This document shows, piece by piece, positions 5,340-21,613 of a stretch of 32,005 nucleotides of DNA. The notes beneath the pieces were generated by a model. It was not told the DNA's origin. It searched no databases and worked only from the letters and a program-made list of their open reading frames with translations. Source of the DNA: an uncultured Anaerolineae bacterium (GTDB lineage: Bacteria > Chloroflexota > Anaerolineae > JAYEMR01). Numbering within the stretch: the stretch's first letter is position 1; each line of letters begins with the position of its first letter. The stretch is from positions 1-32,005 of the forward strand of contig CAYRNM010000004.1 of assembly GCA_964425465.1 (NCBI GenBank). Reading direction: 5' to 3'. Position numbers and translations under genes: made by a program.

Positions 5340-5488
5340 CTCGCGGACCGGGCCCGCAGCGAATCGGGCGTAATCTGCATGAGCTCAATGACAGAGGTGC
5401 ATATGCCCCACCCCTTCCCCGGGCTCCTGTCGCAGGCTCCCCGCCGGGGAAGAGCTCCACAGGCTGTCTTGGCGCTGCCCGCAGGTAG

Positions 5489-5711: not shown

Positions 5712-5739
5712 GTAGGGGCGTAGCGCGCTACGCCCCTAC
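5712..5739. repeat. perfect 28-nt GTAG-headed palindrome (REP-like), probable terminator of the long minus-strand operon
   Basis: GTAGGGGCGTAGCG|CGCTACGCCCCTAC has 14+14 perfect arms. The TAG stop of the 561-aa gene (5736..5738) lies inside one arm. On the minus strand it is followed by UCUCCUCCUUCUUCUUCC. Confidence 0.6.
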
Positions 5740-7421
5740 CGCTTATCCCGCCCTAGACCCTCCACCTTGGGCAGGTATCCTAGCTCCTTCAGCGCCTGCA
5801 CCAGCCGTGGCCAGTCATCCTCGGCCACCAGTGCCGCCTGGGGGCCGAGCACCTCCTGCAAATAATCGCGGATCTGGGGCAAATGCTGGAGCTCTTGCAA
5901 CGTCAGCTCATCGGCCGTCTGCAGGAGCACCGCCTGACGCAGTGCGATTTTGCCCGCTTTCCGCTCCCAGTCGGCCAAAAGGATCGGCCCATTGTGGGGC
6001 AACTTCCTCCCCGCCGCCTGCTCCAGAAAGGCCACAATCTGAGAGAGGGCGATTCCCTGCTCTCGGCTGCGGGCCAAAGACTCCGGCGTAATGCGGTAGC
6101 CAAAGGGCACAACGCCTTCCACCCGCTCGGCGAAGCGGGCCAACTGGAAGCGATCGTAGAGGCTGCCCTCCACCGGGGCTCGAATGGTGAGGTCTGGAGC
6201 TACGGCCAGGGGAAGTGGGGGTTCAGGCGCCAATAGCTCCTCACCGGCCAGAAAGGCCGCTCCCTGGTGGGTGATCTGAAAGGCCGCAGGCCTCCCTTCA
6301 TCCATCCCCAGAATCACGATGCCCAGCCAGAAGAGGGTTCTGGTCAGGAGGTCGCGGATGAGCGCCCCTTCCACCTTATCCCAGGATTCAAAGCCGGTGA
6401 GGTATTCCCTGCTAGCCGCATCGCGGATGTACCAGCCGTCGTAGTCCCCGTCGGGGCGCTGGAAATCGGGATCAGCGAACTTGAGGGCCTGGACGAAGGA
6501 TTCGATGCTTCGCCACTCCTCGGCTGGGCAGCGGGCCAGCCAGCTCAGGAGCCGATGACGGGTGGCCAGGGGATCATTTTTCCAACCGGTGGGTTGGCAC
6601 TGCAAGCCTGGCACCCGCCACAGCTCATTCCAGTCTGGGCTGTCATGCCAGCCCTGCTGTAGGCTCTGCAGTTGCTGCGCGGGCGATGCTCGCAGCCAGG
6701 CTCTGGCCCGCGAAGGGTCCAGTCGCAGCCGGCGATCGCGCTCCCTAATCAAGCCCAGTCGCCAGGACAGGTGCTCGATGAGCGCCAGCCGGTCTGGGTC
6801 CTCCTCCAGTAGGGCTCCCAGCAATCGTCCGTGATGTTGTTGCGGAAGTGTGCCCTTCGGCCCGGGCCGCACCGCCACACGGTACAGGTAGATGAGAAAG
6901 GTGCACATATCCTGTCGGAAGGCCTGCCCGCCCTCCTTCTGCTGCTCTGGCAGCGGGGCAGGGGCCACAACGAACGGCGGTTCCCCCTCCTGAGGCTTGG
7001 GCAGCAGGGGAAGGAGATCGGAAGGGATGTAAACCACCTCTGCGTCGGGGGCTTCCAGATTGAAACCCAGAGCGATGAGCCCCCGGTACCAGAGGCCTTC
7101 CGCGCCACTTACGGGCTCGCGCCAGGGCTCCTCCCGCCGCAGGCGGCCAGGGCCTATGCGCCGGATGGGGCCGTGATGGCGGGTAAAACGCCCCGCTGGC
7201 ATTCGGCCTCCGGCGGCCAGGAGCGCATCCAAAGCGGCTTGCTCCTGGAGAGAGAGGTCAGCTAGCGTTGCCGCCACTGCCTCAGGCCGCGGCAGCGCCG
7301 ACTCCAGATGATCGAGCACCTCTCCCTTTTGATGGCTCTCCAGGACCAACCCCCAGCGCTGGGCGATCACCTCCAGAAAAGTCAGGTCTCGGTCCAGAAG
7401 GCTTTGGCGTAGGGTGTTCAT
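5736..7421 (-). CDS. 561-aa hypothetical protein with a C-terminal XPB/Ssl2 N-terminal-domain-like (Helicase_C_3-like) region
   Basis: The start MNTLRQSLLDRDLTFLEVIAQRWG at ATG 7421 overlaps the aminotransferase stop (ATGA 7418..7421). The 84-nt extension in the track ORF is Arg/Gly-rich and overlaps the upstream gene. The C-terminus reads ...LTIRAPVEGSLYDRFQLARFAERVEGVVPFGYRITPESLARSREQGIALSQIVAFLEQAAGRKLPHNGPILLADWERKAGKIAL.... This follows the pattern of the XPB damage-recognition domain (Y-R-I-T..SL..A...G.s...I..FL......P.N), recalled from memory. Confidence 0.6.
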   Translation of the reverse strand: MNTLRQSLLDRDLTFLEVIAQRWGLVLESHQKGEVLDHLESALPRPEAVAATLADLSLQEQAALDALLAAGGRMPAGRFTRHHGPIRRIGPGRLRREEPWREPVSGAEGLWYRGLIALGFNLEAPDAEVVYIPSDLLPLLPKPQEGEPPFVVAPAPLPEQQKEGGQAFRQDMCTFLIYLYRVAVRPGPKGTLPQQHHGRLLGALLEEDPDRLALIEHLSWRLGLIRERDRRLRLDPSRARAWLRASPAQQLQSLQQGWHDSPDWNELWRVPGLQCQPTGWKNDPLATRHRLLSWLARCPAEEWRSIESFVQALKFADPDFQRPDGDYDGWYIRDAASREYLTGFESWDKVEGALIRDLLTRTLFWLGIVILGMDEGRPAAFQITHQGAAFLAGEELLAPEPPLPLAVAPDLTIRAPVEGSLYDRFQLARFAERVEGVVPFGYRITPESLARSREQGIALSQIVAFLEQAAGRKLPHNGPILLADWERKAGKIALRQAVLLQTADELTLQELQHLPQIRDYLQEVLGPQAALVAEDDWPRLVQALKELGYLPKVEGLGRDKR

Positions 7422-8512
7422 CTGCGGATGAACTCCTCTGCCCCGGCCAGGAAAGCGGCGATGTACCCCTCGGAATGGGCCCGCCCCATGTGGCCCACGC
7501 GGCACATCTTCCCCCGCAGAGGGCCCATCCCTCCGCCGATGAGGATGCCATGTTCGTGCCTGAGAAAGGCGGCGAACTCCTCCGCTGTCCGGCCTGGATA
7601 GGAACCCACGGCGGTGATGATGGGCGCAGCCAGTGGCTCTTCGACCATCAGCGGAAAGCCCAACTCGCGCAGGCCATCGCGCACCCTCTGGGCTGCCATG
7701 CGATGGCGGGCCTGAAAGGCGGTTAACCCCTCCTCTAGGATGCGTCGCAGGCTGACCTGCAGGGCCAGGATGTTGTTGGTGGGCAGCGTGGTGGGGTAGG
7801 GATGCCAGTCCGCCCAGTCACGGGCGTACTGGAGCCAGGTGCGCAGGTCCAGGTACCATCCACGGTGGGCAGGGTTGGCCTCGATCCGCTCCCAGGCCCG
7901 CTCGCTCACCGACAGCAGCGCCACCCCCGGCGGCGCAGCCAGGCACTTATTGGCCACGCTGATGCATAGGTCAATCCCCCACTCATCCACTGGCAGATCC
8001 ACCCCGCCCAGCGAGGAGACGGCGTCCACGATAAAGGGCAGGCCGTATTTCCGAGCCAGGGTGGCGATCTCCGGCAGGGGGTTCAGCACCCCGGTCGAAG
8101 TCTCGTGATGGACCACTGCCAGTCCATCCATTTTCTTCGTCCGCAGCCGGGTCTCCACCATCGCCAAGTCCAGTGGCTTCCCCCACTCACATGCGACCTG
8201 CTCCACCTCCAGGCTGTTGGCCTCGGCGATGGTTGCTATTCGCTCGCCGAAGAAGCCATTGGTGGGGATGAGCACCCGGGCCTCCGGTGGGAGGAGGCTG
8301 CCCAGGGCGGCGTCCAGCCCAGCGCTGCCCGGGCCAGGCATCAGCAGCACATCCCCCTGGGTCTGGAAGACCGCCCGCAGGAGTGCGACCACATCCCGAT
8401 AGACCTCCATCCACTCCGGGCCGTAGTGGACTGGTATGGGCTGGCCCATCGCGGCCAGCACCTCCGGCTCGACATCCACCGGGCCGGGGATCATGAGCTT
8501 GTATCTCTGCAT
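7418..8512 (-). CDS. class V PLP-dependent aminotransferase (serine-pyruvate/alanine-glyoxylate/AEP-transaminase-like)
   Basis: MQRYKLMIPGPVDVEPEVLAAM..., VVHHETSTGVLNPL, IVDAVSSLGGVDLPVDEWGIDLCISVANKCLAAPPGVA (Lys in the SxxNK context), and the C-terminus ...GKMCRVGHMG. The start at ATG 8512 is preceded by AAGGAG 10 nt upstream. The track ORF extends to 8626. Confidence 0.85.
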   Translation of the reverse strand: MQRYKLMIPGPVDVEPEVLAAMGQPIPVHYGPEWMEVYRDVVALLRAVFQTQGDVLLMPGPGSAGLDAALGSLLPPEARVLIPTNGFFGERIATIAEANSLEVEQVACEWGKPLDLAMVETRLRTKKMDGLAVVHHETSTGVLNPLPEIATLARKYGLPFIVDAVSSLGGVDLPVDEWGIDLCISVANKCLAAPPGVALLSVSERAWERIEANPAHRGWYLDLRTWLQYARDWADWHPYPTTLPTNNILALQVSLRRILEEGLTAFQARHRMAAQRVRDGLRELGFPLMVEEPLAAPIITAVGSYPGRTAEEFAAFLRHEHGILIGGGMGPLRGKMCRVGHMGRAHSEGYIAAFLAGAEEFIRR

Positions 8513-8648
8513 GGCTACCCAGCTCCTTGAACCGGCATCGTTCACAGCCTCCGACACAGCTCGTCGGCTGGCCTCGGCGAATTCTTCCACTTCGTGGGCG
8601 TAGAACTGGTATCCCTCGGCAGCCAAGCCGTTCCCCTCCTCTCCACAT

Positions 8649-9824
8649 TCACCACCGCGGCCTCAAGGGCACCCAATCGGGGCTTCGCCTGCGCATCTCT
8701 GCCGCGTCATCCCGCTCACCTTCCTGAAGCCGGATGTAGTTCTCCGCCAGCACTTGTACCCTCTCCTTGTCCAGCTCAACTCCCAGCCCTGGACCCTCTG
8801 GCACGGCCAGTTCGCCACCCACAAACTGGAGTTTTCCCCCGACGAGCACATCCTCCTCCACCCAGGGATGGTGAGTGTCGCAGGCGTGGAGCAGGTTGGG
8901 GATGGCCGCCGCCAGATGGACCATGGCGGTCAGCGATACCCCCAGATGGCTGTTGGAGTGCATGGAGAGCCCCAGCCCAAAGGCGCTACAGATGGCAGCC
9001 AATTCCTGGCTGGCCCGTAGCCCACCCCAGAAATGGTGGTCTAGGAGGATCACATCCACCGCGCCGGCTCGCACCGCAGGGGCGATGTGCTCAAAGGTGG
9101 TGACGCACATGTTGGTGGAGAGAGGCACCTCTACCCGCTGGCGCACGGCAGCCATGCCCGCGATTCCCCAGGTAGGGTCCTCCACATACTCAAGGCCCAG
9201 TTCCTGCGTTTCCCGGATGAAGCGCACCGAAGTCTCGGCCGACCAGGCAGCGTTGGGGTCAATGCGCAGCTCGTGGTCAGGGAAGGCCTCCCGCAGGAGG
9301 CGCATCGTCTCTATCTCCTGCTGGGGTGGCAGCACCCCTCCCTTCACCTTGAGGGTGCGGAAGCCATGCTCATCTACAAACCGGCGGGCCAGTTCCACCA
9401 TCGCCTCGGGGGTCAGGACCTCACCCCACCGGTCATCCCCGGCATACTTGAAGAAGAGGTAGGCGGAGAAATTCACTCCATCCCGCACCCGGCCACCCAG
9501 CAGGTCGCACAGGGGCCGCCTCGTGGCCCGACCAATGAGGTCCAGGCAGGCTACCTCGATGGCGCTGAAGGCGTGGGGATCGCGGATAAGGAGCCGCAGT
9601 CGGTTGAGGTCGTAGGGGTCGGCGCCCACTACTTTCGCCTCGGCCCGTTGCAGCGCCAAGAGCATCCTCTCCCCACCGTAGGTCTCACTCAGCCCCACCA
9701 GCCCTTCTTCGCTGTGAAGTCGGAGAAGGGTGCGCAGGGCGAAGGGGGCGTGCACGCCCCAGGAGTTGCGCAAGGGAGGATCGGGAAAGGCGATAGGGAT
9801 CAGTTCTAATTGGGTGATGCGCAT
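8649..9824 (-). CDS. enolase-superfamily enzyme, glucarate dehydratase-like
   Basis: It has LKVKGG (KxK), RIDPNAAW, YVEDP, STNMCVT, DHHFWGG and MHSNSHLGVSL. These parallel E. coli GudD FKLKGG / LDPNGAW / YAEDP / ATNMIAT / DPHFW / HSNNHFDISL (from memory). At 391 aa it is shorter than GudD. Confidence 0.8.
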   Translation of the reverse strand: MRITQLELIPIAFPDPPLRNSWGVHAPFALRTLLRLHSEEGLVGLSETYGGERMLLALQRAEAKVVGADPYDLNRLRLLIRDPHAFSAIEVACLDLIGRATRRPLCDLLGGRVRDGVNFSAYLFFKYAGDDRWGEVLTPEAMVELARRFVDEHGFRTLKVKGGVLPPQQEIETMRLLREAFPDHELRIDPNAAWSAETSVRFIRETQELGLEYVEDPTWGIAGMAAVRQRVEVPLSTNMCVTTFEHIAPAVRAGAVDVILLDHHFWGGLRASQELAAICSAFGLGLSMHSNSHLGVSLTAMVHLAAAIPNLLHACDTHHPWVEEDVLVGGKLQFVGGELAVPEGPGLGVELDKERVQVLAENYIRLQEGERDDAAEMRRRSPDWVPLRPRW

Positions 9825-9926: not shown

Positions 9927-10656
<730 letters not shown>

Positions 10657-10667
<11 letters not shown>

Positions 10668-11445
10668 TTTTCATTCTCCTTTCCAGCACTCGGCTCAACG
10701 AGGAAAGGGCCAGGGTCATGATCAGGTACAGCAGGGCCACGGTGTTATACCCCTCGAAGGCGCGAAAGGTCCGTGAGATATACAGGCGGCCCATCTGCAA
10801 CAGGTCGGGCAGGGCGATAACCGCGATCAGCGAGGAGTCCTTAAGCAAGGCAGATAGGTCGTTGACTAGAGGGGGCAGGATGACCCGAAAGGCCTGGGGC
10901 AGGATGATGTAGCGCATGGACTGAAAGTAGGTCATGCCCAGGGAGCGGGCGGCCTCCATCTGCCCCCGGTGGATAGACTGGATGCCAGCCCGGTAGACCT
11001 CGGTCAGATAGGCCCCATAGCCGAACCCCAGCCCCATGATGGCCCGTTGAAGCAGGGGCGGATCGAAGGCCCCGCCGGTGGCGTCACGAACCCAGGGGCC
11101 GATGACGAAGCCGACGTACAGGATGATGACCAGCATGGGGAGGCCACGGATGACCTCGACGTAGAGGGTAGCGATAGCGTACAGGATGGGATTCTTGGAA
11201 ACGCGCCCCAGGCCCCCCATCAGGCCCAGCACCAGGGCCAGGGCGAAGGCCAACACGGTGGTCTGCAACGTCAGCTTGACCCCCTCCATAACGAAGCGGA
11301 TGACTTTGAGATAGGCCTCAGAGTTCAACACCGAGTAACCGACGAAGATGCCGAGGACGGCGATGATGACCGCCCACCAGGGAACGCGTCCCCAAGGGAT
11401 AAGCAAGGCCACGCTTCTCCTTGACTTTCCGACTTCAGAGTTCAT
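10657..11445 (-). CDS. polar amino-acid ABC transporter permease (HisM/GlnP family)
   Basis: YVEVIRGLPMLVIILY and EAARSLGMTYFQSMRYIILPQAFRVILPPLVN (EAA loop) are present. ATG 11445 (GGAGGGG 9 nt upstream) is preferred over ATG 11463. Confidence 0.9.
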
Positions 11446-11486
11446 GATTGGAATCCCCTCCATTCTCCCCTTTAACCCTCAAGGGC

Positions 11487-12431
11487 TCAATCTATGCGCA
11501 GGCGGGGGTCCAGGGCGTCGCGTAGGCCATCTCCCAGCAGGTTGAAACCCAGGACAGTCAACATGATGGCGACGCCGGGGAAGATGATGATGTGGGGAGC
11601 GGTGAACATGGAGAACCTTCCTTCGCCGAGCATGGCTCCCCACTCTGGAGTAGGTGGTTGGGCTCCCAGGCCGAGGAAGCTCAGCCCGGCCGCGTCCAAT
11701 ATGGCTGTAGCGATCCCCAGGGTGCTCTGGACGATGATGGGGGTGATACAATTGGGCAGGATGCTCCGAAAAAGCATCCGCATCGGGCCAACGCCAATAG
11801 CCTGAGCAGCCAGGATGTAATCTTGCTCTTTGACTGACAGGACCTGACTTCGAACCAGGCGCGCGTAGGTCGGGATGGAGACGATGGCGATGGCTACCAG
11901 CATGTTCATCAGCCCCGGCCCCAGGATGGCCACGATGGCGATGGCTAGAAGGAGGGCAGGAAAGGCCAGCATGATATCCATGACACGCATGACTACGTTG
12001 TCTGCCCCACCTCCCCAGTAACCCGATACAGCCCCCAACAAGGTGCCGACCACGATAGCGAAACTAACCGAGAGCACACCTACGCGCAGTGAGAGCCGAG
12101 CTCCATAGATGATCCGGCTCAAGATGTCACGCCCCAAATCATCTAGACCAAAAACATGCTCAGGTGAAGGGGGTTGACGTCGGATCTTTAGCTCCTGCGC
12201 GGTGGGATCATAGGGTGATAAAAGCGGAGCAAATAAGGCGCAGAGGAGAAAAACGCCAAGAATGACCAGGCCCACAATGGCCAACTTGTTTCTCAGCAAG
12301 CGACGCAGGGCATCGCGCCAAAGGCTGGTGAGGGCTCGCTCTTCAAATTGAAAAACAACGCTCCTTTTCTCTGGCAGCTCCATTGAGCCCCTCTTCTGTG
12401 CTGGGCTGACCACCGCGGGGCCATTTTTCAT
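11487..12431 (-). CDS. peptide/nickel-type ABC permease (DppC/OppC family)
   Basis: ...LLSPYDP..., VFGLDDLGRDILSRIIYGARLSL, and AAQAIGVGPMRMLFRSILPNCITPIIV (EAA loop). AGGAG lies 5 nt upstream of ATG 12431. Confidence 0.9.
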   Translation of the reverse strand: MKNGPAVVSPAQKRGSMELPEKRSVVFQFEERALTSLWRDALRRLLRNKLAIVGLVILGVFLLCALFAPLLSPYDPTAQELKIRRQPPSPEHVFGLDDLGRDILSRIIYGARLSLRVGVLSVSFAIVVGTLLGAVSGYWGGGADNVVMRVMDIMLAFPALLLAIAIVAILGPGLMNMLVAIAIVSIPTYARLVRSQVLSVKEQDYILAAQAIGVGPMRMLFRSILPNCITPIIVQSTLGIATAILDAAGLSFLGLGAQPPTPEWGAMLGEGRFSMFTAPHIIIFPGVAIMLTVLGFNLLGDGLRDALDPRLRID

Positions 12432-12472
12432 CTTTTCTCCTTTGACAGTCCCACTGAATCACTCTGTTCCGC

Positions 12473-13552
12473 TTAATCGAAGCGAATACGAGGATCCAGA
12501 TAAGCGTAGGAGATGTCCACCAAAAGGTTGATCAACACAAACATAAAAGCAATCAGCAAAACACCCCCTTGTACGGCAGGGTAGTCGCGGGCCAGAACGC
12601 GATCCACCACCAGGCGCCCCATCCCAGGCCAGGAGAAAATGGTCTCGGTCAGGATGGCCCCTCCCAAAAGGCCACCCAGCAGCAGGCCGATCACCGTGAT
12701 GACCGGCAGGAAAGCGTTTTTCAGAGCATGAACCAGGATCACTACCTGTTCCTGCAATCCCTTGGCCCGGGCGGTACGGATGTAATCCTGGCCCAGCACC
12801 TCCAGAAGGCTGCTGCGGGTCATGCGGGCGATGTAGGCCATGGGGATGGTGCCCAAAGCCAGGGAGGGAAGCACAAGGTGTTTGAGAACATCTATCAAAG
12901 CTGTCAGATTGCGGATGATAAGAGCATCAAGGATATAGAAGTTGGAGAGGAAATCGGTAAAAGCGATGATTTTGGCTCCAGTGGGTCCAGTGAGGGTCTC
13001 TTTGAGGTGATAGGCCTCAGCGATGGTCTTCAGTTCGACCCCCACTGTCAGGCGCATGGAGGGAGGCAGCCATTGTAACTTGAAACCGAAAAGGTACATC
13101 AGGATCAGGCCCAGCCAGAAGACAGGCATGGAGACACCCATCAGGGCTCCAACCATGGTGGTCAAATCGAAGAAAGAATTGTGGTGGTAGGCGGCCACGA
13201 TGCCGGCCGGAATGCCGATCAAACAGGCCACAAACATAGCCCCCAAGGTCAGTTCCACCGTGGCCGGCAATCGCTGGGCCAATTCTTCTGTGACCAGGAA
13301 ATTGGTACGCACAGAGCGCCCCAGGTCTCCCCGGGCAATTTTACTTACATAGCGTAAGTACTGGATAGGTATGGGATCATCCAGACCGTACGCCTTCCTG
13401 AAGCGAGCCACCTTCTCATCCGTGGCGTGCTCTCCCAGCATCACATCGGCCGGATCGCCCGGGATGAGGTGCATCATAGTAAAAGTGACAATCGAAATCC
13501 CCAATAAGACGAAAAATAACAGCAGCAAACGCTGGATAATGTAGCGGGTCAA
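12473..13552 (-). CDS. peptide/nickel-type ABC permease (DppB/OppB family)
   Basis: MTRYIIQRLLLLFFVLLGISIVTFTMMHLIPGDP..., DYIRTARAKGLQEQVVILVHALKNAFLPVITV, and C-terminus YAYLDPRIRFD. The TTG start at 13552 has AAGGAG 8 nt upstream. Confidence 0.9.
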   Translation of the reverse strand: MTRYIIQRLLLLFFVLLGISIVTFTMMHLIPGDPADVMLGEHATDEKVARFRKAYGLDDPIPIQYLRYVSKIARGDLGRSVRTNFLVTEELAQRLPATVELTLGAMFVACLIGIPAGIVAAYHHNSFFDLTTMVGALMGVSMPVFWLGLILMYLFGFKLQWLPPSMRLTVGVELKTIAEAYHLKETLTGPTGAKIIAFTDFLSNFYILDALIIRNLTALIDVLKHLVLPSLALGTIPMAYIARMTRSSLLEVLGQDYIRTARAKGLQEQVVILVHALKNAFLPVITVIGLLLGGLLGGAILTETIFSWPGMGRLVVDRVLARDYPAVQGGVLLIAFMFVLINLLVDISYAYLDPRIRFD

Positions 13553-13631: not shown

Positions 13632-16046
13632 CTATTCTCCCTTGAACCCGCCGAAGAAGTCAGCGAAGTAGACGTACTCGTTGGTGTGGGCGGTAGCGCG
13701 ATAGGGATGATTGGGATCCCAGGCCCGCTCGATGTTGAAAAGCACGGCATCGGCGTTGAAGTCTGTCCCGTCGTGGAACTTGATGCCCTGCTTGAGCTTG
13801 ATGGTCCATACCAGACCGTCGGCGGAGACTTCAGGCATCCCATCGGCCAGCTTCGGCTCGATCTCAGTTGAGCCCGGCTTCCGGGCATAGAGCCCCTCGA
13901 AGATCTGGTTGGTGACCATGAAAGACTCGCCATCGGTCTCGTCCCAGGCATCCAGGCCCACGGCGTCGCCGGCGCGACCCCAGATGAAAGTGCCGGTAGG
14001 GGTTTCGATTGGCCACCAGTTCTCCAGGTAGAAGGGGTCAGGGACGATGTTCTTGACGTCCTTCTTGGCAGCGAAGGCGCCGGCGTTGTGCATCACCGGC
14101 ACACCGAGGGCGATGTCGTGGATGCGCTGGTTGGCCTGGTGGTACAGCTCGGTGCGCTTGGCGACATCGGGCTCAGAGCGGGCCTTGACCAGCAGGTCGT
14201 ACAGCTCCTGATCAGGCGGCCCCTTAGCCCAGCTATCGGTGGTGCCACTGAAGAAGGTGAACAGGTTGTTGTCCGGATCGCCAAAGTCGGACATCCAGCC
14301 CCCCATCCACAGGTCGGCCTCGTCGTGGCGGATCTTGTACAGGTAGGTGCCCCAGTCGTAGGTCACCAGGTGACAATTGATGCCAATGCTCTGGAGCTGT
14401 TTCTGCATGATCTCGGCGATCAGCTTGGCCTCCGGATAGTACGAGCGTCGCACCGGCAGATACCACAGGTAGATCTCCAGGCCCTCGGAGTAACCAGCCT
14501 GGGCCAGCAGTTCCTTGGCCTTTTCAGGGTTGTACTCGTAGTCCACGATCGCGTCGTTGTAGCCCCACATCAAGGGCGGCAGGTATTCCTTGGCCGTCTG
14601 AGCTGTCTTCGGAGCGATAGCCTCTACGATGGCTTGCTTGTCAATGGCGTAATTGACGGCCTGGCGCACCTCCAGCTTGTTGAACGGCTCGCGGTCGGTG
14701 TTCATCCCCAGATAGCCGATGGTGAAAGCCGGGCGAACGTACAGAGCCAAATTCGGGTCGGCCTCGATCACGGGGATGTCGTCAGGTCGGACGCTGTCGG
14801 CGCCGTCAATGGTCCCCGTCTGCAACTCCAGGAGCCGGGCGGCGTCATCCTTGATGACCCGGAAGACCATCTTGTCCAGCTTGGCCTTCTCGCCCCAGTA
14901 GTTGTCGTTGCGGACAATGGTGATGGTGTCCTCGGGCTTCCACTCCACGAACTTCATGGGACCCGTGCCCACCGGGTTCTTGAAGCTGTCTGCCATGTTC
15001 TTCTTGACTGCCTCTGGGCTGACCATGGGCATCATGGCCGAGGCCAACTGGGCCAGGAAGGGAGCATGGGGCCGGTGGAAGGTGAATCTCACGGTGTAAT
15101 CGTCCACCTTCTCCACCGACTTGAGCACGCACCTTGCCTCCTCAACTGGCGGTGCTGCTGGGGCCGCCGGCACGGCGAACCACTTGTTGTAGATCTCATC
15201 GTACTGGCCACTGGCTTTGACTGCGGCCAGACCGGCGTTGATGGCGGCCAGCACTTCGGGGCGCTCCTTGCGCACGGCGATGCCGTACTGCTCCTCGGTA
15301 TAGACGCCCGGCAGCACTTTGAGCTTCATCTCCGGGTTGGCCTTGACAATCTCAATGGCCGTCGGGCCGTCGGCCACGGCCGCGTCCACGTCACCGGCAG
15401 CCAGGGCCTGGAAAGCCAGGGTGTTCTCGTCGTACCGCACCACCTCAGCCTTGGTCTGCTCCGTCAGCCAGATGTCGCCGGTGGTGCCCAACTGGACGCC
15501 CACCTTCTTGCCCGCCAGGTCTTCGGGGCCCTTGATCCGGGTCTCGTCGGTGCGGACGGCGATCATCTGCCCAGCGTTGAAGTAGGGGTCGCTGAAGTCC
15601 ACGGTCTGGGCCCGTTCCTCGGTGATGGTGGCCGCCGAGATGACGGCGTCGAACTCACCGGAGGCCAGGGCCACGAAGATGCCATCCCAACGGGTGTTGA
15701 TGGACTCGAACTCGAAGCCCGCCGCTTTGGCGATGGCGTCGAAGAGGTCGGGGTCGAAGCCGATGATATTGCCCGCCTCATCCACCATCTCAAAGGGCGG
15801 GTACTCAGCGTTGATGCCGACTTTCAGTTTGCCGAGTTTGGCTGGCGTGGGCGTCACCACCACCACCTTCTCGACCGGCACCTCCTTGACCACCTCCTTC
15901 TCGACCGGCACCTCCTTCTCCACCACCACCGTCTCCACCACTTTCTCCCTAACCACCTGAGGGGTTGGAGCGCCGCAGGCGGTGAGAAGCAGGCTGACGA
16001 TCAGGCCCAAAGTCATGATGGTCCAAGCTCTATTGCGTATAAGCAT
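13632..16046 (-). CDS. fused ABC substrate-binding lipoprotein: family-3 (amino-acid) domain plus circularly permuted family-5 (DppA-type) domain
   Basis: The start MLIRNRAWTIMTLGLIVSLLLTAC (lipobox LLTAC) is preceded by GGAGGAG. The track ORF begins 11 codons earlier, at 16079. It is a single uninterrupted frame of about 800 codons. Domain details are in the three following entries. Confidence 0.85.
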   Translation of the reverse strand: MLIRNRAWTIMTLGLIVSLLLTACGAPTPQVVREKVVETVVVEKEVPVEKEVVKEVPVEKVVVVTPTPAKLGKLKVGINAEYPPFEMVDEAGNIIGFDPDLFDAIAKAAGFEFESINTRWDGIFVALASGEFDAVISAATITEERAQTVDFSDPYFNAGQMIAVRTDETRIKGPEDLAGKKVGVQLGTTGDIWLTEQTKAEVVRYDENTLAFQALAAGDVDAAVADGPTAIEIVKANPEMKLKVLPGVYTEEQYGIAVRKERPEVLAAINAGLAAVKASGQYDEIYNKWFAVPAAPAAPPVEEARCVLKSVEKVDDYTVRFTFHRPHAPFLAQLASAMMPMVSPEAVKKNMADSFKNPVGTGPMKFVEWKPEDTITIVRNDNYWGEKAKLDKMVFRVIKDDAARLLELQTGTIDGADSVRPDDIPVIEADPNLALYVRPAFTIGYLGMNTDREPFNKLEVRQAVNYAIDKQAIVEAIAPKTAQTAKEYLPPLMWGYNDAIVDYEYNPEKAKELLAQAGYSEGLEIYLWYLPVRRSYYPEAKLIAEIMQKQLQSIGINCHLVTYDWGTYLYKIRHDEADLWMGGWMSDFGDPDNNLFTFFSGTTDSWAKGPPDQELYDLLVKARSEPDVAKRTELYHQANQRIHDIALGVPVMHNAGAFAAKKDVKNIVPDPFYLENWWPIETPTGTFIWGRAGDAVGLDAWDETDGESFMVTNQIFEGLYARKPGSTEIEPKLADGMPEVSADGLVWTIKLKQGIKFHDGTDFNADAVLFNIERAWDPNHPYRATAHTNEYVYFADFFGGFKGE
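13635..14003 (-). other. SBP family 5 segment equivalent to the N-terminal ~1/4 of mature DppA, relocated to the C-terminus
   Basis: Residues 693-815 read TPTGTFIWGRAGDAVGLDAWDETDGESFMVTNQIFEGLYARKPGSTEIEPKLADGMPEVSADGLVWTIKLKQGIKFHDGTDFNADAVLFNIERAWDPNHPY...YVYFADFFGGFKGE*. This corresponds to DppA ...[45 protein letters not shown]...LNADDVVFSFDR...YEYFEGMGLPELI (from memory). Confidence 0.8.
14004..15131 (-). other. SBP family 5 segment equivalent to the C-terminal ~3/4 of DppA
   Basis: Residues about 317-692 read VLKSVEKVDDYTVRFTFHRPHAPFLAQLA...NPVGTGPMKF...PPLMWGYNDAIVDYEYNPEKAKELLAQAG...GGWMSDFGDPDNN...KDVKNIVPDPFYLENWWPIE. This is colinear with E. coli DppA from SEVKKVDDNTVQF to its C-terminus KEVKGYVVDPLGKHHFENVSIE (from memory). 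Confidence 0.8.
15174..15833 (-). other. SBP family 3 (PBPb, polar amino-acid binding) domain of the fusion protein
   Basis: KLKVGINAEYPPFEMVDEAGNIIGFDPDLFDAIAKAAGFEFESINTRWDGIFVALASGEFDAVISAATITEERAQTVDFSDPYFNAGQMIAVR...YGIAVRKERPEVLAAINAGLAAVKASGQYDEIYNKWF. This is a full-length domain (ORF residues about 83-302). Confidence 0.85.
15866..15917 (-). repeat. 30-bp tandem duplication inside the receptor tether
   Basis: The 22-mer CCTTCTCGACCGGCACCTCCTT occurs at 15866..15887 and at 15896..15917. It encodes KEVPVEKEVV/KEVPVEKVVV within the V/E/K-rich linker REKVVETVVVEKEVPVEKEVVKEVPVEKVVVVTPTP. Confidence 0.75.
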
Positions 16047-16162
16047 GTCTCCTCCTCTCGAATGCAGGTCTTGAAACACGGATGGACAGGACAGGAAAAC
16101 GGTCTCTCTTCGGCATCACCTCCCTTCGCAGAGAACTCATCACACGCCAGTCCAAAAGCAAG

Positions 16163-16389: not shown

Positions 16390-17187
16390 TTGGATAATCT
16401 CAGTAGTGACAGAAAGCAGCGCTCGATCCTGTACGTGGAGCGGGTGAGTAAAGCCTTCGGCGGCTTGATGGCTGTGAACGACCTCTCCCTGGAGGTGTCT
16501 CCGCGGACCATCACGGGCCTCATCGGCCCCAACGCGGCCGGTAAGACCACCCTCTTCAATCTGATCTCCGGGCTGTACAAGACCGACGCTGGGGCCATCT
16601 ATTTCAACGGAGAGCGCATTGATGGTCTGCCACCGCACAGGATTTTCCACAAAGGCATCTGTCGTACCTTTCAAATCACCCGTGAGCTCAAACTGATGAC
16701 CGTGCTGGAAAACCTGATGCTGGTGCCGCCAAGCCAGGCCGGGGAGAGCCTGCTGAACACCTGGCTGCGGCCCTGGCGGGTACGGACCCAGGAGCGGGAG
16801 CTCAGGGAGAAGGCGCTGGAGGTGTTGTGCTTCGTGGAGCTGATTGACCTGCAGGATGAATATGCAGGCCATCTATCAGCCGGACAGAAGCGGCTGCTGG
16901 AGCTGGCCCGCACGATGATGGCCGATCCGCAGCTCCTTCTATTGGACGAGCCGGGTGCTGGGGTGAACCCCACTCTGCTGAAGCGGTTGGTGGAGTACAT
17001 CCAGCGGCTGGCCTTTGAACATGGGGTGACCATCTTCCTGATCGAGCACGACATGGACCTGGTGATGAGCACCTGTAACCCGGTCATCGTGATGAACAGC
17101 GGTGAGAAGTTGGCCGAGGGACCGCCGGATGCCATCCGGCGCGATCCGCAGGTGCTGGAAGCCTACCTGGGAGGGCAACAGCGATGA
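16390..17187 (+). CDS. livG: branched-chain/hydrophobic amino-acid (HAAT) ABC transporter ATP-binding protein LivG
   Basis: FGGLMAVNDLSLEV, Walker A GPNAAGKTTLFN, LSAGQKRLLELARTMM, LLLLDEPGAGVNP, and C-terminus DPQVLEAYLGG. TTG start. The stop overlaps the livF ATG (ATGA). Confidence 0.9.
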   Translation: MDNLSSDRKQRSILYVERVSKAFGGLMAVNDLSLEVSPRTITGLIGPNAAGKTTLFNLISGLYKTDAGAIYFNGERIDGLPPHRIFHKGICRTFQITRELKLMTVLENLMLVPPSQAGESLLNTWLRPWRVRTQERELREKALEVLCFVELIDLQDEYAGHLSAGQKRLLELARTMMADPQLLLLDEPGAGVNPTLLKRLVEYIQRLAFEHGVTIFLIEHDMDLVMSTCNPVIVMNSGEKLAEGPPDAIRRDPQVLEAYLGGQQR

Positions 17188-17891
17188 GCCTGCTAGAAGT
17201 CGAAAATGTCGTCTCGGGCTACGGGGAGGAGATGGAGATCCTGCACAATGTCTCCATCCGCGTCGAGAAGGGGGAGATTGTTTCACTGATTGGACCCAAC
17301 GGCGCCGGCAAGTCCACGCTGATGAAGACCATCTTCGGGCTCCTGAGGGCCTGGAAGGGTCGCGTCCTCTTCGCCGGCGAGGAGATCACCCGCCTGCAGC
17401 CCGAACAGATCGTGCGCCGGGGACTGTGCTATGTGCCACAGGTGGACAACGTTTTCCCCTCGCTGACCGTGCAGGAGAATCTGGAGATGGGGGCCTTCAT
17501 CCGTGATGACGACTACCGGCCGCGCATAGATGAGGTCTACGACATGTTTCCGGACCTGAAGGGCCGGCGGGGCACTCGGGTCGGCAGGCTCAGCGGCGGG
17601 ATGCGGCAGATGGTCGCCCTGGGCCGGGCGCTGATGCTAGACCCCCAGATGCTGCTGCTGGATGAGCCCTCGGCCGGGCTGGCCCCCCTGGTTGTGGAGC
17701 TGATCTTCGAGCGCATTCGGGCCATCAACCAGCAGGGGGTGACCATCGTGATCGTGGAGCAGAACGCACGCAAGGCGTTGGAGAACTCGGATCGGGGTTA
17801 TGTCCTGGTGGACGGACAGAACCGCCTGGAGGGCGCGGGACAGGCGCTGCTGGCCGATAAGCAAATTGGTGAGCTATTCCTGGGGAGATAG
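17184..17891 (+). CDS. livF: HAAT-family ABC transporter ATP-binding protein LivF
   Basis: LEVENVVSGYG, GPNGAGKSTLMKTI, VPQVDNVFPSLTVQENLEMG, LSGGMRQMVALGRALM, LLLLDEPSAGLAP. Confidence 0.9.
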   Translation: MSLLEVENVVSGYGEEMEILHNVSIRVEKGEIVSLIGPNGAGKSTLMKTIFGLLRAWKGRVLFAGEEITRLQPEQIVRRGLCYVPQVDNVFPSLTVQENLEMGAFIRDDDYRPRIDEVYDMFPDLKGRRGTRVGRLSGGMRQMVALGRALMLDPQMLLLDEPSAGLAPLVVELIFERIRAINQQGVTIVIVEQNARKALENSDRGYVLVDGQNRLEGAGQALLADKQIGELFLGR

Positions 17892-17894
17892 GCG

Positions 17895-18800
17895 GTGGCT
17901 GAACTGGTGGGCTACGGCGTTGTGCTGGGCAGCATCATCACTCTAGGAGCGATTGGTCTGACGCTGATCTACGGCATCGTCCGCTTCGGCAACTTTGCCC
18001 ACGGCGATCTGATGACCCTGGGAGCTTACCTGGCCCTGCTGCTGGCGGCGCGCCTATTCCCTGCTTTGGGCGTATCCGACAGCCGTCTGGGCGCCCTGTC
18101 CTTCGGCTGGGTGATGCTGGTCTCATTTGTACCGGCCATGGTGGTCACCGGCCTGGTGGCGGTGGGGGTGGACCGGCTGGTGTACCAGCGGCTGCGGCAT
18201 TTGAGGGTCCCGCCGGTGATGCTGGCCATGGCCTCGCTAGCTATGGCCTTCATCCTGCGAAGCCTGATCTACATCTTCTGGGGGCCCGACTTTCACTTCT
18301 ACACCTCGGGCCTACGACCGATGTTGATGCTGCCCCTGGGGATCAAACTGCGCCCTGACCAAATCTTCATTATCGTCACCGCCTGGGTCCTGGTCGTGGC
18401 TCTGTACCTCTTCCTGCAGCGGACGAAGATGGGCAAGGCGCTGCGGGCCATGGCCGACAACCCGGACCTGGCACGCATCAGCGGCATCCCCACCGAGCAG
18501 ATGACGACCTGGACCTGGATCATCGGCGGGGGAATGGCGGCGGCCGGTGGCATCCTGTTGGGCATTGACTCCCAGGTCCGACCGGAGATGGGCTGGATTC
18601 TGCTCCTGCCCCTCTTTGCCGCCATCATCCTGGGTGGTATTGGCAACCCCTATGGCGCTCTGGTCGGTGGCCTGGTGATTGGTGTTGTCCAGCAAGTTTC
18701 CACCCAGTGGCTGCTTCCGGCCTATAAACCAGCTGTGGCCTTCGCTGTCCTGATCGTGATCCTTCTGTTTCGCCCCCAGGGCATCTTCGGAGGGAGTTGA
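17895..18800 (+). CDS. livH: HAAT-family ABC transporter permease LivH
   Basis: The pattern is typical of LivH: GSIITLGAIGLTLIYGIVRFGNFAHGDLMTLGAY..., MGKALRAMADNPDLARISGIP, ...LLFRPQGIFG. GTG start with GGGGAGA upstream. Confidence 0.9.
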   Translation: MAELVGYGVVLGSIITLGAIGLTLIYGIVRFGNFAHGDLMTLGAYLALLLAARLFPALGVSDSRLGALSFGWVMLVSFVPAMVVTGLVAVGVDRLVYQRLRHLRVPPVMLAMASLAMAFILRSLIYIFWGPDFHFYTSGLRPMLMLPLGIKLRPDQIFIIVTAWVLVVALYLFLQRTKMGKALRAMADNPDLARISGIPTEQMTTWTWIIGGGMAAAGGILLGIDSQVRPEMGWILLLPLFAAIILGGIGNPYGALVGGLVIGVVQQVSTQWLLPAYKPAVAFAVLIVILLFRPQGIFGGS

Positions 18801-19768
18801 TGGACATCGTCCGCGTGCTTCATTTCCTGGCTGGCTTTACGATCACAGCCTCCATCTACGCCATCTTCGCCCTGGGACTGAATGTCCACTGGGGCTACAC
18901 CGGGCTGTTCAACATCGGCATCGCCGGCTTCTTCGCCATTGGCGCCTATACCTCGGCGCTGGTGACCAGCCCGCCGCCCTCCGGCGTCCGCGCCGACTAT
19001 GTCCAGCAGGCCATCGGGCTGAACCTGCCCTTCCCGGTGGGGGTGATCGCTGCCGGCCTGGTCTGCGGCCTGCTGGCCATTCTGATCGGTATTCCCACCT
19101 TACGGCTCCGGGAGGACTACCTGGCTATCGCCACCATCGGCATCGCCGAAACGATCCGACGGGTGTTCAACAATGAGCGCTGGCTGGCCAACGGGCCACA
19201 GGGGATGGTGGGGCTAGCGCAGCCATTGGGAGAACTGGTTCCGCCCAACTACTACAACTTCGTCTACCTGGCCATCATTTTAGCGGTTCTGGTGGTGGTC
19301 TACATAGCCCTGGAACGGGGCATTCGCTCCCCCTGGGGCCGTGTCTTGCGGGCCATCCGTGAGGATGAGATCGTCACTGAGGCCGCCGGCAAAGATGTGT
19401 TCCGGTTTAAGATGCAGTCTCTGGTCCTGGGAGCAGCGATCATGGGCCTCGGCGGGGCGCTGTACGCCCACTCGGTGCGCGCCATTCAGCCCAGCGTCTT
19501 CACCCCTCTGTTCGGCACCTTCATCATCTGGGTCATGCTCATCCTGGGGGGCAGCGGCAACAACAAGGGAGTGGTGCTGGGAGCCTTCATTGTTTGGGGG
19601 ATCTGGTCGGGGACGGGCTACGTCATTGATCGGGTGATACCGGTCGCCTGGGCCGCCCGGGCGCCCTTTATCCGCCTGCTGGTGATCGGACTGCTGCTGG
19701 TGGGTATCCTGCTGACCCAGCCGCAGGGCATCCTGGGGGAGGAGAAGCAAGTTTCGCGTATGATGTAG
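18800..19768 (+). CDS. livM: HAAT-family ABC transporter permease LivM
   Basis: ALGLNVHWGYTGLFNIGIAGFFAIGAYTSA..., LRLREDYLAIATIGIAETIRR, and RAIREDEIVTEAAGKDVFRFK. ATG 18800 overlaps the livH TGA (TGATG). The track ORF starts 3 nt earlier at a TTG. Confidence 0.9.
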   Translation: MDIVRVLHFLAGFTITASIYAIFALGLNVHWGYTGLFNIGIAGFFAIGAYTSALVTSPPPSGVRADYVQQAIGLNLPFPVGVIAAGLVCGLLAILIGIPTLRLREDYLAIATIGIAETIRRVFNNERWLANGPQGMVGLAQPLGELVPPNYYNFVYLAIILAVLVVVYIALERGIRSPWGRVLRAIREDEIVTEAAGKDVFRFKMQSLVLGAAIMGLGGALYAHSVRAIQPSVFTPLFGTFIIWVMLILGGSGNNKGVVLGAFIVWGIWSGTGYVIDRVIPVAWAARAPFIRLLVIGLLLVGILLTQPQGILGEEKQVSRMM

Positions 19769-19834
19769 AAGAGAACCGCTGCCGTAAAGCGATTTGGCCA
19801 TCAACTAGTTTTCACACCCCACAAGTTTCCCACC

Positions 19835-19864
19835 GGGCGGTTTCGCGCAAGTCGCGAACCGCCC
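19835..19864 (+). terminator. hairpin downstream of livM
   Basis: GGGCGGTTTCGCG-caagt-CGCGAACCGCCC forms a 12-bp stem with one bulged T, followed by TGATCATTTAT. It lies 67 nt after the livM stop. Confidence 0.45.
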
Positions 19865-19976
19865 TGATCATTTATCACTCGAGATCGCGTAGCAGTGCAC
19901 GTAGCTGTAGGACGAACATAGGAGTGAGCTGAGTAACCAGGCCTACTCCTCGCCCGGCGTGACTGCACAGGCCAGG

Positions 19977-20005
19977 TTGCGGACTGGACCTAACATTGCT
20001 ATACT
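19977..20005 (+). promoter_or_regulatory. sigma70-like promoter for the small membrane-protein gene
   Basis: TTGCGG, a 17-nt spacer, then TGcTATACT (extended -10). AGGAGG lies 6 nt before ATG 20057. Confidence 0.45.
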
Positions 20006-20056
20006 CAAGAGGCATTTGCAGGAAACGGCGGGGGGAAGTAGGATCAGGAGGAGTAC

Positions 20057-20470
20057 ATGAGTCCCAAGCGAGAGCGACGGAAGCGGGCGCGGCAGGAGGT
20101 GGGCCGCAAGTCGGAAGCAGGCATTCAGTGGCTAGGCATCCTGCTGGCATTGTGCGGGGTGGGGATGTTTGCCAGCGGGCTGTACCTGATCGGTATCCTC
20201 CCTCCGCAACTCTTTCCCCGCGTCCAGCGTTTTTGGGAGCCGGCATCCACTGCTCTCCGTATCGGCGCGATCGGCGATCTGTTGGCCGGGACAGTGGTCA
20301 TTGCCTTAGGAGCTTTGGGTATCCGAAAGCGCCTGGCCAAGAGATCATTGTACATTGTCATGGCCTGCGCCTTCCTGGGACTCATCGCTGACATGCTGGG
20401 CGGCCTGTACGCTATCAGCGCTCAGGTAACCTGGTATCTGGCCCTGTTCACGGTGCTATTCCGCCGGTAG
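20057..20470 (+). CDS. small integral membrane protein (about 4 TM helices), no family recognised
   Basis: It has a strong SD and a basic N-terminus (MSPKRERRKRARQEVGRK) followed by four hydrophobic segments. It is preferred over the antisense ORFs 19875..20246 and 20125..20394. Confidence 0.6.
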   Translation: MSPKRERRKRARQEVGRKSEAGIQWLGILLALCGVGMFASGLYLIGILPPQLFPRVQRFWEPASTALRIGAIGDLLAGTVVIALGALGIRKRLAKRSLYIVMACAFLGLIADMLGGLYAISAQVTWYLALFTVLFRR

Positions 20471-20501
20471 ATGGAATGGGTAGCGGATTCCAAAAGGGTG
20501 G

Positions 20502-20774
20502 CTAGAGTACCTCGAACCATATCAGGATGCCCAGTACTACAAAAGCTACCGCCGAAGCTTTGCGTAGGAAGATAGCAGGTACCAGCCGACACAGGACCTG
20601 ACCTCCTAGTACGCCCAGAAGTGTCACTACTGCCAGAGCCCCAACCGCTCCCATAAAGACCGCCCCCGGATGGCCATACTTGCTGACCATGCTAATAACG
20701 GCCAGTTGTGTCTTATCCCCCAGTTCAGCCACAAACAGCAGCACGAAGGTGCTGAGGAGAACATTCCAGTCCAT
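20502..20774 (-). CDS. single-repeat UPF0016 (GDT1/TMEM165/MneA) family cation (Mn2+/Ca2+) transporter subunit
   Basis: It is 90 aa with 3 predicted TM helices and the family signature E-x-G-D-K-T in FVAELGDKTQLAVISM. Only one copy of the repeat is present. Confidence 0.85.
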   Translation of the reverse strand: MDWNVLLSTFVLLFVAELGDKTQLAVISMVSKYGHPGAVFMGAVGALAVVTLLGVLGGQVLCRLVPAIFLRKASAVAFVVLGILIWFEVL

Positions 20775-20808
20775 TTCCTACCTTCCAATGGGTACAACCA
20801 AGGCGAGA

Positions 20809-20878
20809 ACTTTGATCCGCCAGAGCGTGTCTTGCCTCCGCAGGCCACAGGAGTTCGCCCGTTGGTAGCGCATCAAGT
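20809..20878 (-). promoter_or_regulatory. structured 5' leader of the UPF0016 gene
   Basis: The RNA 5'-ACUUGAUGCGC (20878..20868) pairs with GGCGGAUCAAAGU (20821..20809), giving 10 bp with one bulge and one mismatch. This stem encloses a CUCC...GGAG hairpin. It begins at about the predicted +1. No known riboswitch motif was recognised. Confidence 0.25.
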
Positions 20879-20885
20879 GATGATA

Positions 20886-20913
20886 GTTATAGCCTGAATG
20901 GAAGCTTTGTCAA
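20886..20913 (-). promoter_or_regulatory. sigma70-like promoter for the UPF0016 gene
   Basis: The minus strand reads TTGACA (20913..20908), a 16-nt spacer, then TATAAC (20891..20886). Confidence 0.5.
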
Positions 20914-21182
20914 GTACGTGGGGAAAGGAAAACAGGGTCGTTGGGGTACGGGCAGATGTGCTCGGTCGCGAGCGGTGCGAGCGACTCTGCCTATCTCGCG
21001 GGTTTGCAGCGGAACCCAAGCTAGGCAGATCCTTCTGTTGGGCTCCAGACTTGACCCAGAGTCCGCCAACCGGGCCCCGTTAGGTGAAACCCGAGGAGGT
21101 TCGGAATGAACCTCCGACGAGTCCCGGCCGCATTACCCTCCCCAAGGTTGCCTGGACTTGGTAAGACACCTGAGGAAAGGCT

Positions 21183-21212
21183 TTTGCCTTTGGTGTGAAT
21201 CTATGCTATAAT
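21183..21212 (+). promoter_or_regulatory. sigma70-like promoter for tatA
   Basis: TTGCCT (21183..21188), an 18-nt spacer, then TGcTATAAT (hexamer 21207..21212). AGGAGG lies at 21254..21259, ahead of ATG 21265. Confidence 0.5.
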
Positions 21213-21264
21213 AAAGGCTGAAGTATCCTAGTGGAACAGGTAGGAGATTAGTTAGGAGGAGAAA

Positions 21265-21456
21265 ATGCCGCATTTGGGACTTCCGGAACTGATGATTATC
21301 CTGGTGATTATCATCATCATCTTCGGCGTGGGGAAGCTGCCGCAGATCGGTGGGGCTTTGGGTCGGGGGATCCACGAGTTCCGAGAGGCCACACGCCAGG
21401 GGGAGGAAGAAGAAGAGGTCTCCCCATCTGAACCTAAAGGAGAGGAAGAAGCGTAA
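21265..21456 (+). CDS. tatA: twin-arginine translocase subunit TatA/E
   Basis: [42 protein letters not shown] followed by an acidic tail. This is the canonical TM helix, the FG..KLP hinge and an amphipathic helix. Confidence 0.9.
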
Positions 21457-21613
21457 TCGCTTTAGGGTTAAACAGCCTGATAGCAGCGGCTCTGGGTCTT
21501 GCCAGGAGCTGAAAAATCGCTATGGCTATAAGTCACCTTGGCCTGATCTTAGTCCTTTCTGCTGGGCAGGGATTCGTCAGTGTGACCTCTAGTTGCTCCG
21601 CGTATGTAGAAGA

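Follow-up and report, generated by a model that had tools for sequence, protein, structure and literature searches.

A natural circular permutant of the family-5 solute-binding fold in a predicted lipid-anchored fusion protein of Chloroflexota

Can a large solute-binding protein be encoded from the middle of its fold and be inherited in this form? The question is raised by a gene on the reverse strand of a contig from an uncultured Anaerolineae bacterium (Chloroflexota; assembly GCA_964425465.1, contig CAYRNM010000004.1, positions 1 to 32,005), the whole stretch of 32,005 nucleotides being referred to here as the window. The gene encodes an amino-acid-binding domain of the SBP_bac_3 family (SBP3) followed by a domain of family 5 (SBP_bac_5, here SBP5), to which the dipeptide-binding protein DppA belongs. 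A sequence-only reading of the window had proposed that the family-5 domain is circularly permuted, and the analysis confirms that it is a natural circular permutant, real and conserved. Residue numbers refer to the 804-residue protein counted from an ATG at 16046, and open reading frame (ORF) numbering to the 815 codons counted from the first GTG.

The Pfam, NCBIfam and Protein Data Bank (PDB) matches of the domain are all swapped. The Pfam model PF00496 was matched with a total E-value (E) of 1.8e-104 in two stretches with swapped model coordinates, 65-366 and then 1-60, which is the pattern that the sequence-only reading had expected. In a scan of the whole ORF, residues 319-615 of the 815 were assigned to positions 65-366 of the 368 in the model; when scanned alone, the first 378 residues of the family-5 region matched positions 66-366 (E 3.5e-85) and the last 123 residues positions 1-60 (E 1e-19). 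The E-values of these profile matches exclude a chance match. The NCBIfam DppA model (535 positions) was likewise matched at 152-524 and then at 48-144, and phmmer against the PDB aligned HbpA 125-497 first and 22-117 second. For Escherichia coli DppA, residues 306-680 of the window protein correspond to 152-524 and residues 693-804 to 31-143, so that each part of the fold is represented exactly once, with neither gap nor overlap. The break falls in the DppA loop YEYF/EGMGLPEL/ISEVKKVDD, where the sequence-only reading had placed it. The native N-to-C order of fold elements was not seen in any profile or PDB comparison, no PDB chain colinear over all 499 residues at low root-mean-square deviation was found by phmmer or Foldseek, and no solved structure with the topology of the window domain was found.

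Permutants of this kind are not unique to the window and make up a large family in the Chloroflexota. They are called query type when they share the break of the window protein, near position 110 of a 489-column canonical-order hidden Markov model (HMM) profile; P and L numbers denote proteins and loci of this analysis. When 5.8 billion proteins were searched, more than 100 of 750-840 residues proved to have the same Pfam content, and three query segments were compared by blast with the 120 matches listed. Two orders occur in the same phylum, SBP3 followed by the C-terminal three quarters and then the N-terminal quarter of SBP5, as opposed to the canonical order in which the N-terminal quarter comes before the C-terminal three quarters. 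Among the listed fusions with usable coverage (SBP3 or a LivJ-type domain joined to SBP5), 67 were permuted and 38 canonical. The 67 span 33-97% identity and derive from ENA, JGI, NCBI and Logan assemblies. When 48 full-length permutants are aligned, their C-terminal piece ranks with the best conserved parts, and its consensus end is ...FFGGFKGE.

Further permuted clusters emerged from a phmmer search of 1.84 billion cluster representatives, including standalone lipoproteins of 549-584 residues (P0123, P0155, P0218, P0237, P0256, P0257 and P0262). These begin at the strand xLKSIEAVDxYTVKF, immediately behind a lipobox and a Pro/Thr-rich linker, and finish at an FGGF(K/L) motif. A search seeded with P0237 yielded 119 new relatives, every one of which (119/119) had query-type breakpoints on the canonical-order HMM, with coordinates of about 112-488 followed by 1-111 in the examples printed; the named sources are Anaerolinea thermophila (on a 3.53-Mb contig), Leptolinea tardivitalis, Thermoflexus sp. 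and Bellilinea sp. In total, the same start and end points recur in more than 180 homologues, drawn from independent assemblies. Homologues of the same order, for which the sequence-only reading had proposed to look, were found as 67 listed fusions and 119 relatives of P0237, and its view that the domain is not a truncated tandem pseudogene is borne out by the identical termini. The names of permuted members in the databases are generic, for example 'ABC transporter substrate-binding protein'. The taxonomic picture rests on names attached to a minority of the matches. A scan of GTDB representative genomes with two peptide patterns retrieved mostly canonical DppA genes, and the loci permuted by tblastn (L006 and L007) were 2 of the 80 listed, a proportion that is a poor guide to the true distribution.

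The amino-acid-binding domain does sit at the new N-terminus in the window, as had been stated, but the permutation is not tied to this fusion. A permutation caused by, or dependent on, the joining of SBP3 was rejected, since standalone permutants and canonical-order fusions both exist. The fusion protein itself appears to be a mosaic, with modules exchanged at the linkers, because SBP3 and SBP5 identities disagree among relatives. The SBP3 domain of the window is 90-92% identical to those of P0006 and P0052, of which the SBP5 domains are 29-46% identical to that of the window, while the window SBP5 shares 88% identity with the SBP5 domains of P0002-P0005 and P0007, proteins whose N-terminal partners are 50% identical or of another class.

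The whole region is held by a single unbroken ORF (13632..16079, reverse strand). The sequence GAGGAGGAG sits immediately 5' of the ATG at 16046, and because it directly precedes this codon, the ATG is the likely true start, giving 804 residues. The protein runs from the lipobox through a tether, the SBP_bac_3 domain and a PAAPAAPPVEE linker to the SBP_bac_5 domain with its swapped pieces; the linker, the preceding SBP_bac_3 domain and the coordinates 13635-15131 had all been read correctly from the sequence. The features of the protein are as follows.

15975..16046, reverse strand: signal peptide and lipobox MLIRNRAWTIMTLGLIVSLLLTAC; Cys24 is kept in at least 90% of 48 homologues, and the model has a helix at residues 4-22.
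15831..15974, reverse strand: flexible tether with many V, E, K and P residues, GAPTPQVVREKVVETVVVEKEVPVEKEVVKEVPVEK...; the predicted local distance difference test score (pLDDT) is below 50 over residues 20-65.
15171..15830, reverse strand: SBP_bac_3 (cluster F) amino-acid-binding domain; PF00497, E 1.5e-44.
15132..15170, reverse strand: inter-domain linker PAAPAAPPVEEAR; pLDDT below 50 at residues 294-301.
14007..15131, reverse strand: piece 1 of the permuted SBP5, the native last three quarters (DppA 152-524), starting at strand VLKSVEKVDDYTVRF.
13971..14006, reverse strand: junction from native C-terminus to native N-terminus, ETPTGTFIWGRA; modelled with pLDDT 90-97.
13635..13970, reverse strand: piece 2 of the permuted SBP5, the native N-terminal quarter (DppA 31-143; PF00496 1-60), with last residues ...FFGGFKGE, then the stop.
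14445..14447, reverse strand: Arg534 (PVRR), the counterpart of R383 of E. coli DppA by alignment.
14286..14288, reverse strand: Asp587 (GWMSD), the counterpart of D436 of E. coli DppA by alignment.

The SBP3 domain matches the PF00497 model at 1-131 of 132 positions, that is, over the full length of the profile, and shows about 50% identity with Thermotoga maritima ArgBP (6svf/4prs; E 3e-58). No families other than SBP_bac_5 and SBP_bac_3 were detected in the ORF by Pfam or NCBIfam, and no homology to cluster B (MglB/RbsB-type) proteins. The ORF carries a lipobox and lacks a BPD_transp domain, the permeases being separate genes. The tether (15831-15974) reiterates a V/E/K/P motif, VVEKEVPVEKEVVKEVPVEK, and the tethers of relatives are either of a similar V/E/K/P type (P0010, L006) or rich in Pro, Thr and Ala.

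Structure prediction was in line with a single globular domain. An AlphaFold2 (AF2) model of the full-length protein, made with the 48-sequence alignment, had a mean pLDDT of 88.6 and a predicted template modelling score (pTM) of 0.66, and confidence was low only in the tether (20-65) and the linker (294-301). The model of the permuted domain alone, a check that the sequence-only reading had suggested, formed one globule with pLDDT 93.3 and pTM 0.89; no segment fell below 50, and the junction and the last 112 residues were at about 90 or higher. Foldseek placed about 385 colinear residues on structures of the DppA family at 2.5-4.7 Å. The best match, 8z1z_F, had 2.5 Å and a template modelling score of 0.71, against a rough estimated ceiling of about 0.77 for 385 of 499 residues; Foldseek aligns sequentially and therefore speaks only for the colinear three quarters of the bilobed, three-domain fold that is typical of the family. 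On the DppA crystal structures, we place the loop at about 144-152 of the DppA precursor in subdomain II of the N-lobe.

In E. coli DppA, R383 binds the carboxylate of the dipeptide and D436 its amino group, and dipeptide binding is lost in the R383D+D436R double mutant (PMC12136057). Their counterparts, R534 and D587, do not vary among 48-50 permuted homologues. Because the predicted fold and this Arg/Asp pair are intact, the permuted domain is predicted to bind di- or oligopeptides. The window protein is homologous to family 5 and would very probably work like DppA, but it falls outside the chain topology by which the family is implicitly defined.

The gene is followed on the same strand by four transporter genes in the order DppB-DppC-GlnP-GlnQ.

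12473..13552, reverse strand: DppB-like permease; NCBIfam DppB, E 9e-100.
12947-13021, reverse strand: insertion of about 25 residues in DppB (its residues 178-202), in the loop between transmembrane helices 3 and 4.
11487..12431, reverse strand: DppC-like permease, OppC_N and BPD_transp_1; DppC and GsiD models, E about 1e-92 to 1e-99.
10657..11463, reverse strand: GlnP/HisM-type polar amino-acid permease; GlnP model, E 2.8e-41.
9927..10667, reverse strand: GlnQ-type ATPase without an oligo_HPY domain; GlnQ model, E 2.2e-99.

The operon (9927-13552) thus contains two permease sets and one ATPase only, of the GlnQ type. The same four transporter genes accompany a triple fusion of LivJ-type domain, SBP3 and permuted SBP5 in L002, and also P0015 in L090, and in L005 the order is DppB-DppC-DppD-DppF-GlnP-GlnQ. 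In L001, SBP3 is replaced by a LivJ-type domain, the permuted domain is 88% identical to that of the window, and DppB and DppC are present without GlnPQ. Standalone permutants are located in plain SBP-DppB-DppC units, and DppD and DppF are found also in a differently permuted locus, L089. In fusions with binding domains of three other classes, SBP5, whether permuted or canonical, is the C-terminal module, behind SBP_bac_3 (PF00497), Peripla_BP_6/ANF_receptor (PF13458/PF01094; LivJ-type) or Peripla_BP_4 (PF13407; RbsB-type). Multi-class fusions are exemplified by L003 2742-5432, P0032, P0051, P0077 and P0117, the three-domain proteins having about 1130-1190 residues. Proteins of about 500 residues in which either half gives the SBP3 match resemble SBP3-SBP3 tandems.

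The insertion in DppB is present in the window, L001, L002, L003 (in the operon with Peripla_BP_4 and permuted SBP5), L005, L007, L086 (in its permuted unit) and L087. It is absent from the query-type loci L006 and L090, the differently permuted L089, the canonical fusions in L003 and L088, the canonical unit of L086 and, in other phyla, about 60 canonical loci. L003 and L086 accordingly have DppB with and without the insertion within one contig. The loop is probably periplasmic, because it precedes the helix leading to the cytoplasmic EAA loop. The correlation between permutation and insertion is strong, not absolute, and may reflect lineage history instead of functional coupling; a strict coupling of the two was rejected on account of L006 and L090, which are of query type and lack the insertion.

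How the permutation arose is suggested by tandem proteins. Two SBP5 copies are found in P0121, P0175, P0217 and P0221, three in P0240 and four in P0127; these proteins and P0134 have head-to-tail SBP5 domains, from two to four or more, and reach up to 3461 residues. P0121 is the best-scoring match outside the near-identical relatives. Residues 14-499 of the window domain are colinear with its residues 191-666 (E 2e-164), an alignment that starts in copy 1, crosses the junction and continues in copy 2. Counted from the sequences, the SP...LDP connector has 31 residues in the window protein, P0155 and P0133, and 30 in the P0121 junction. Tandem arrays and a nearly equal connector length are what a duplication/truncation model predicts, and the signature of such an event that had been recognized in the window is thereby supported, as proteins of the N-C-N-C arrangement do exist. 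To judge from these relationships, a head-to-tail SBP5-SBP5 fusion trimmed at both ends is the most likely origin of the permutation.

The family has also been broken elsewhere. When proteins were mapped on the canonical-order HMM (489 positions), at least four further breakpoints came to light in proteins that carry a signal peptide or lipobox themselves and contain the fold once, or very nearly once.

Break at about 158: P0222, a single cluster representative.
Break at about 260: P0145, with a C-terminal membrane anchor; the cluster includes a Ca. Methanofastidiosia archaeon protein.
Break at about 328: P0140, P0239, P0192 and P0232, four independent clusters; P0232 is from Planctomycetota, and its second piece ends at about 304.
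Break at about 415: P0133 (L089 6001-7749), in a complete dppBCDF operon.

P0133 is about 54-56% identical to the query-type proteins P0155 and P0015, and the canonical fusions P0010, P0032 and P0061 are as close to these two, so that three topologies (canonical, query type and break at about 415) coexist at about 55% identity.

Taken together, we hold with high confidence that the window encodes a lipid-anchored, two-headed receptor with an amino-acid head and a naturally permuted DppA-like head, which would serve two ABC (ATP-binding cassette) importers. The receptor would be anchored by its lipobox and long flexible tether, with the ArgBP/GlnH-like domain first, the Pro/Ala linker next and the DppA-like domain last. 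In the latter, the chain would enter at the loop of DppA 144-152, reach the native C-terminus, cross the short connector to the native N-terminal strand and end at its point of entry. The permuted head would hand peptides to the DppB/DppC permease, whose genes follow in the operon, and the SBP3 head would serve the importer of the GlnP/GlnQ type. The permutation would shift the point of tethering and fusion away from the N-terminal strand of the native fold and into a loop already serving as a short surface connection, and a functional advantage of the new termini may be supposed.

Several points weigh against this reading, or against its simplest form. The native packing of the last 112 residues is predicted from AF2 confidence and sequence homology, and ligand specificity is a prediction for every member of the family. 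No DppD or DppF genes were found among the window ORFs scanned. In neighbour-joining trees, a 66-member clade was obtained with a small set (support 27/60), and with a large set the query-type permutants formed one clade in 0/100 bootstraps; P0015, P0155 and, by DppB type, L006 lie near canonical-order fusions and a differently permuted protein. Since a few permutants lie near canonical-order fusions in this way and the bootstraps gave 0/100, a single origin of the query type is not established. The identical breakpoints speak for a small number of events; three topologies so closely intermingled speak for repeated interconversion. We tentatively suggest, as a possibility that is somewhat less than even, that family 5 is unusually prone to permutation through tandem-array intermediates, that interconversion may be recurrent and that, with the insertion gained by the partner DppB in the main query-type lineage, docking or tether geometry may have been re-engineered for strings of several lipid-anchored binders, in bacteria taken here to lack an outer membrane.

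Among other explanations, the one that fares best is that the permuted SBP5 has lost peptide delivery and acts as a sensor, or as a scaffold or dock keeping other binding domains (SBP3, LivJ-type, RbsB-type) close to DppBC. It would explain why the domain is the C-terminal partner of three classes of binding protein, also in triple fusions, why the window operon does without DppD/F and why most partner DppB proteins have an unusual, probably periplasmic insertion. Such a role is, however, difficult to reconcile with an invariant pair of dipeptide-binding Arg and Asp residues, with standalone permutants in ordinary SBP-DppB-DppC units or with the DppD/F genes of the L005 operon. In addition, GlnPQ genes track the SBP3 domain, and their occurrence where it occurs suggests that each head has its own translocator. 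We regard the loss of peptide delivery as unlikely.

A good deal less probable is a chain that does not close upon itself, the C-terminal native-N quarter complementing another protomer in domain-swapped dimers or polymers. Circular permutants and split folds are capable of swapping, but the monomer model (pTM 0.89) keeps a pLDDT of about 90 or more in the junction and throughout the last 112 residues, and the C-to-N connector is constant at 30-31 residues in two permutation types and the tandem protein, which fits intramolecular closure. Finally, an assembly chimera or in-frame accident, in which the last 123 or so codons belong to a neighbouring or decayed SBP5 gene, deserves hardly any credence: metagenome-derived sequence can be chimeric and tandem SBP5 genes occur in related genomes (L031, L042, L086), but the same order and termini recur in more than 180 proteins from ENA, JGI, NCBI and Logan down to 31-35% identity, one of them, a protein named from Anaerolinea thermophila, on a contig of 3.53 Mb, few regions are conserved as well as the C-terminal piece and the fold is covered exactly once. 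Misassembly and pseudogene were rejected on these identical termini across independent homologues and on the confident single-globule model. The two-headed receptor with a self-contained, permuted peptide-binding head is therefore the explanation that we prefer.

The rest of the window bears other genes. Divergent from the fusion gene, a LivG-LivF-LivH-LivM branched-chain amino-acid importer is encoded at 16390-19768 on the forward strand, with no LivJ-type gene seen adjacent; in relatives, a LivJ-type domain precedes permuted SBP5 directly (P0007) or forms part of a triple fusion (P0032, P0077 and P0117). Downstream of the transporter genes, at 7418-9824 on the reverse strand, lie an MR_MLE enolase-superfamily enzyme, for which the best NCBIfam match is glucarate dehydratase, far under the cutoff, and a class-V aminotransferase-like gene; the two may share a catabolic unit. 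The region 19800-21600 has a lower GC content (0.55-0.57) and short ORFs only. Read from the translations, a TatA-like ORF of 63 residues is found at 21265-21456 and hydrophobic ORFs of 90 residues at 20502-20774 (reverse strand) and of 137 residues at 20057-20470. Rfam and tRNA scans of the whole window gave no matches, and the ORFs at 27342-29939 (865 residues), 2777-3715 (312 residues) and 4968-5723 (251 residues) had no Pfam match at E <= 1e-4.

In ABC importers, the binding proteins serve as textbook examples of how folds evolve and as favourite scaffolds of biosensors, for which permutants are engineered by hand. If the interpretation given here is true, nature has already made a permutant of the large cluster C fold that is stable, inherited widely and tolerant of other binding proteins attached at its new N-terminus, and the route of permutation by tandem fusion and subsequent trimming is visible in living relatives. 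For annotation, profile searches return the domain as two out-of-order pieces, and members named in the databases bear generic names, with the result that the topology is invisible in current databases. The fusion of two classes of binding domain, with two matching permease sets in one operon, also makes it possible to test whether a single tethered receptor feeds two transporters.

Among known systems, E. coli DppA and Haemophilus HbpA (GbpA) (PDB 1dpp, 8z1y, 3m8u) share homology over the whole fold with the permuted domain (E 1e-86 to 1e-89). Identity is about 36% over the colinear 385 residues, the R383/D436 pair is kept and the gene adjoins DppB/DppC. Unlike DppA and HbpA, the domain has a permuted order with termini in the loop of DppA 144-152, belongs to a lipoprotein, is placed behind an SBP3 domain and is encoded in an operon without DppD/F. 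Importers of the GlnPQ type have tandem binding domains of one class, fused to the permease. With Lactococcus lactis GlnPQ (PDB 6h30) the window protein has in common that several binding domains are carried per polypeptide, and its SBP3 domain matches 6h30 with E 2.5e-55; in contrast to the GlnPQ/OpuA type, it fuses cluster F with cluster C and is lipid-anchored, with the permeases separate and present as two sets. Close counterparts are also the canonical SBP3-SBP5 lipoproteins of Chloroflexota (for example P0010, P0019, P0036), which have the same domains, length and DppB-DppC-GlnP-GlnQ layout and SBP3 domains 70-90% identical to that of the window, but in which SBP5 is in native order and the DppB lacks the 25-residue insertion.

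The sequence-only reading had known of no described permuted family-5 binding protein. A literature search for natural permuted OppA, DppA, SBP_bac_5 or solute-binding proteins agrees with this for family 5 and cluster C, for which it found none, only engineered biosensors; the statement does not extend to binding proteins in general, as a permutation has been published for cluster B. TpMglB-2 (Tp0684) of Treponema pallidum is a naturally permuted glucose-binding lipoprotein for which the class 'Type Ic / Cluster Bc' was proposed, and proteins of its kind occur mostly in organisms with tethered binding proteins, a link to tethering being suggested by the authors (PMC4990184). Both are natural circular permutations of the binding protein of an ABC importer, with function retained in TpMglB-2, and they are alike in principle only. 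The Treponema protein differs in being of cluster B (type I fold), in having another breakpoint and poor similarity in the permuted part, and in having no second binder fused to it; in the window protein, by contrast, both permuted pieces are clearly homologous to family 5.

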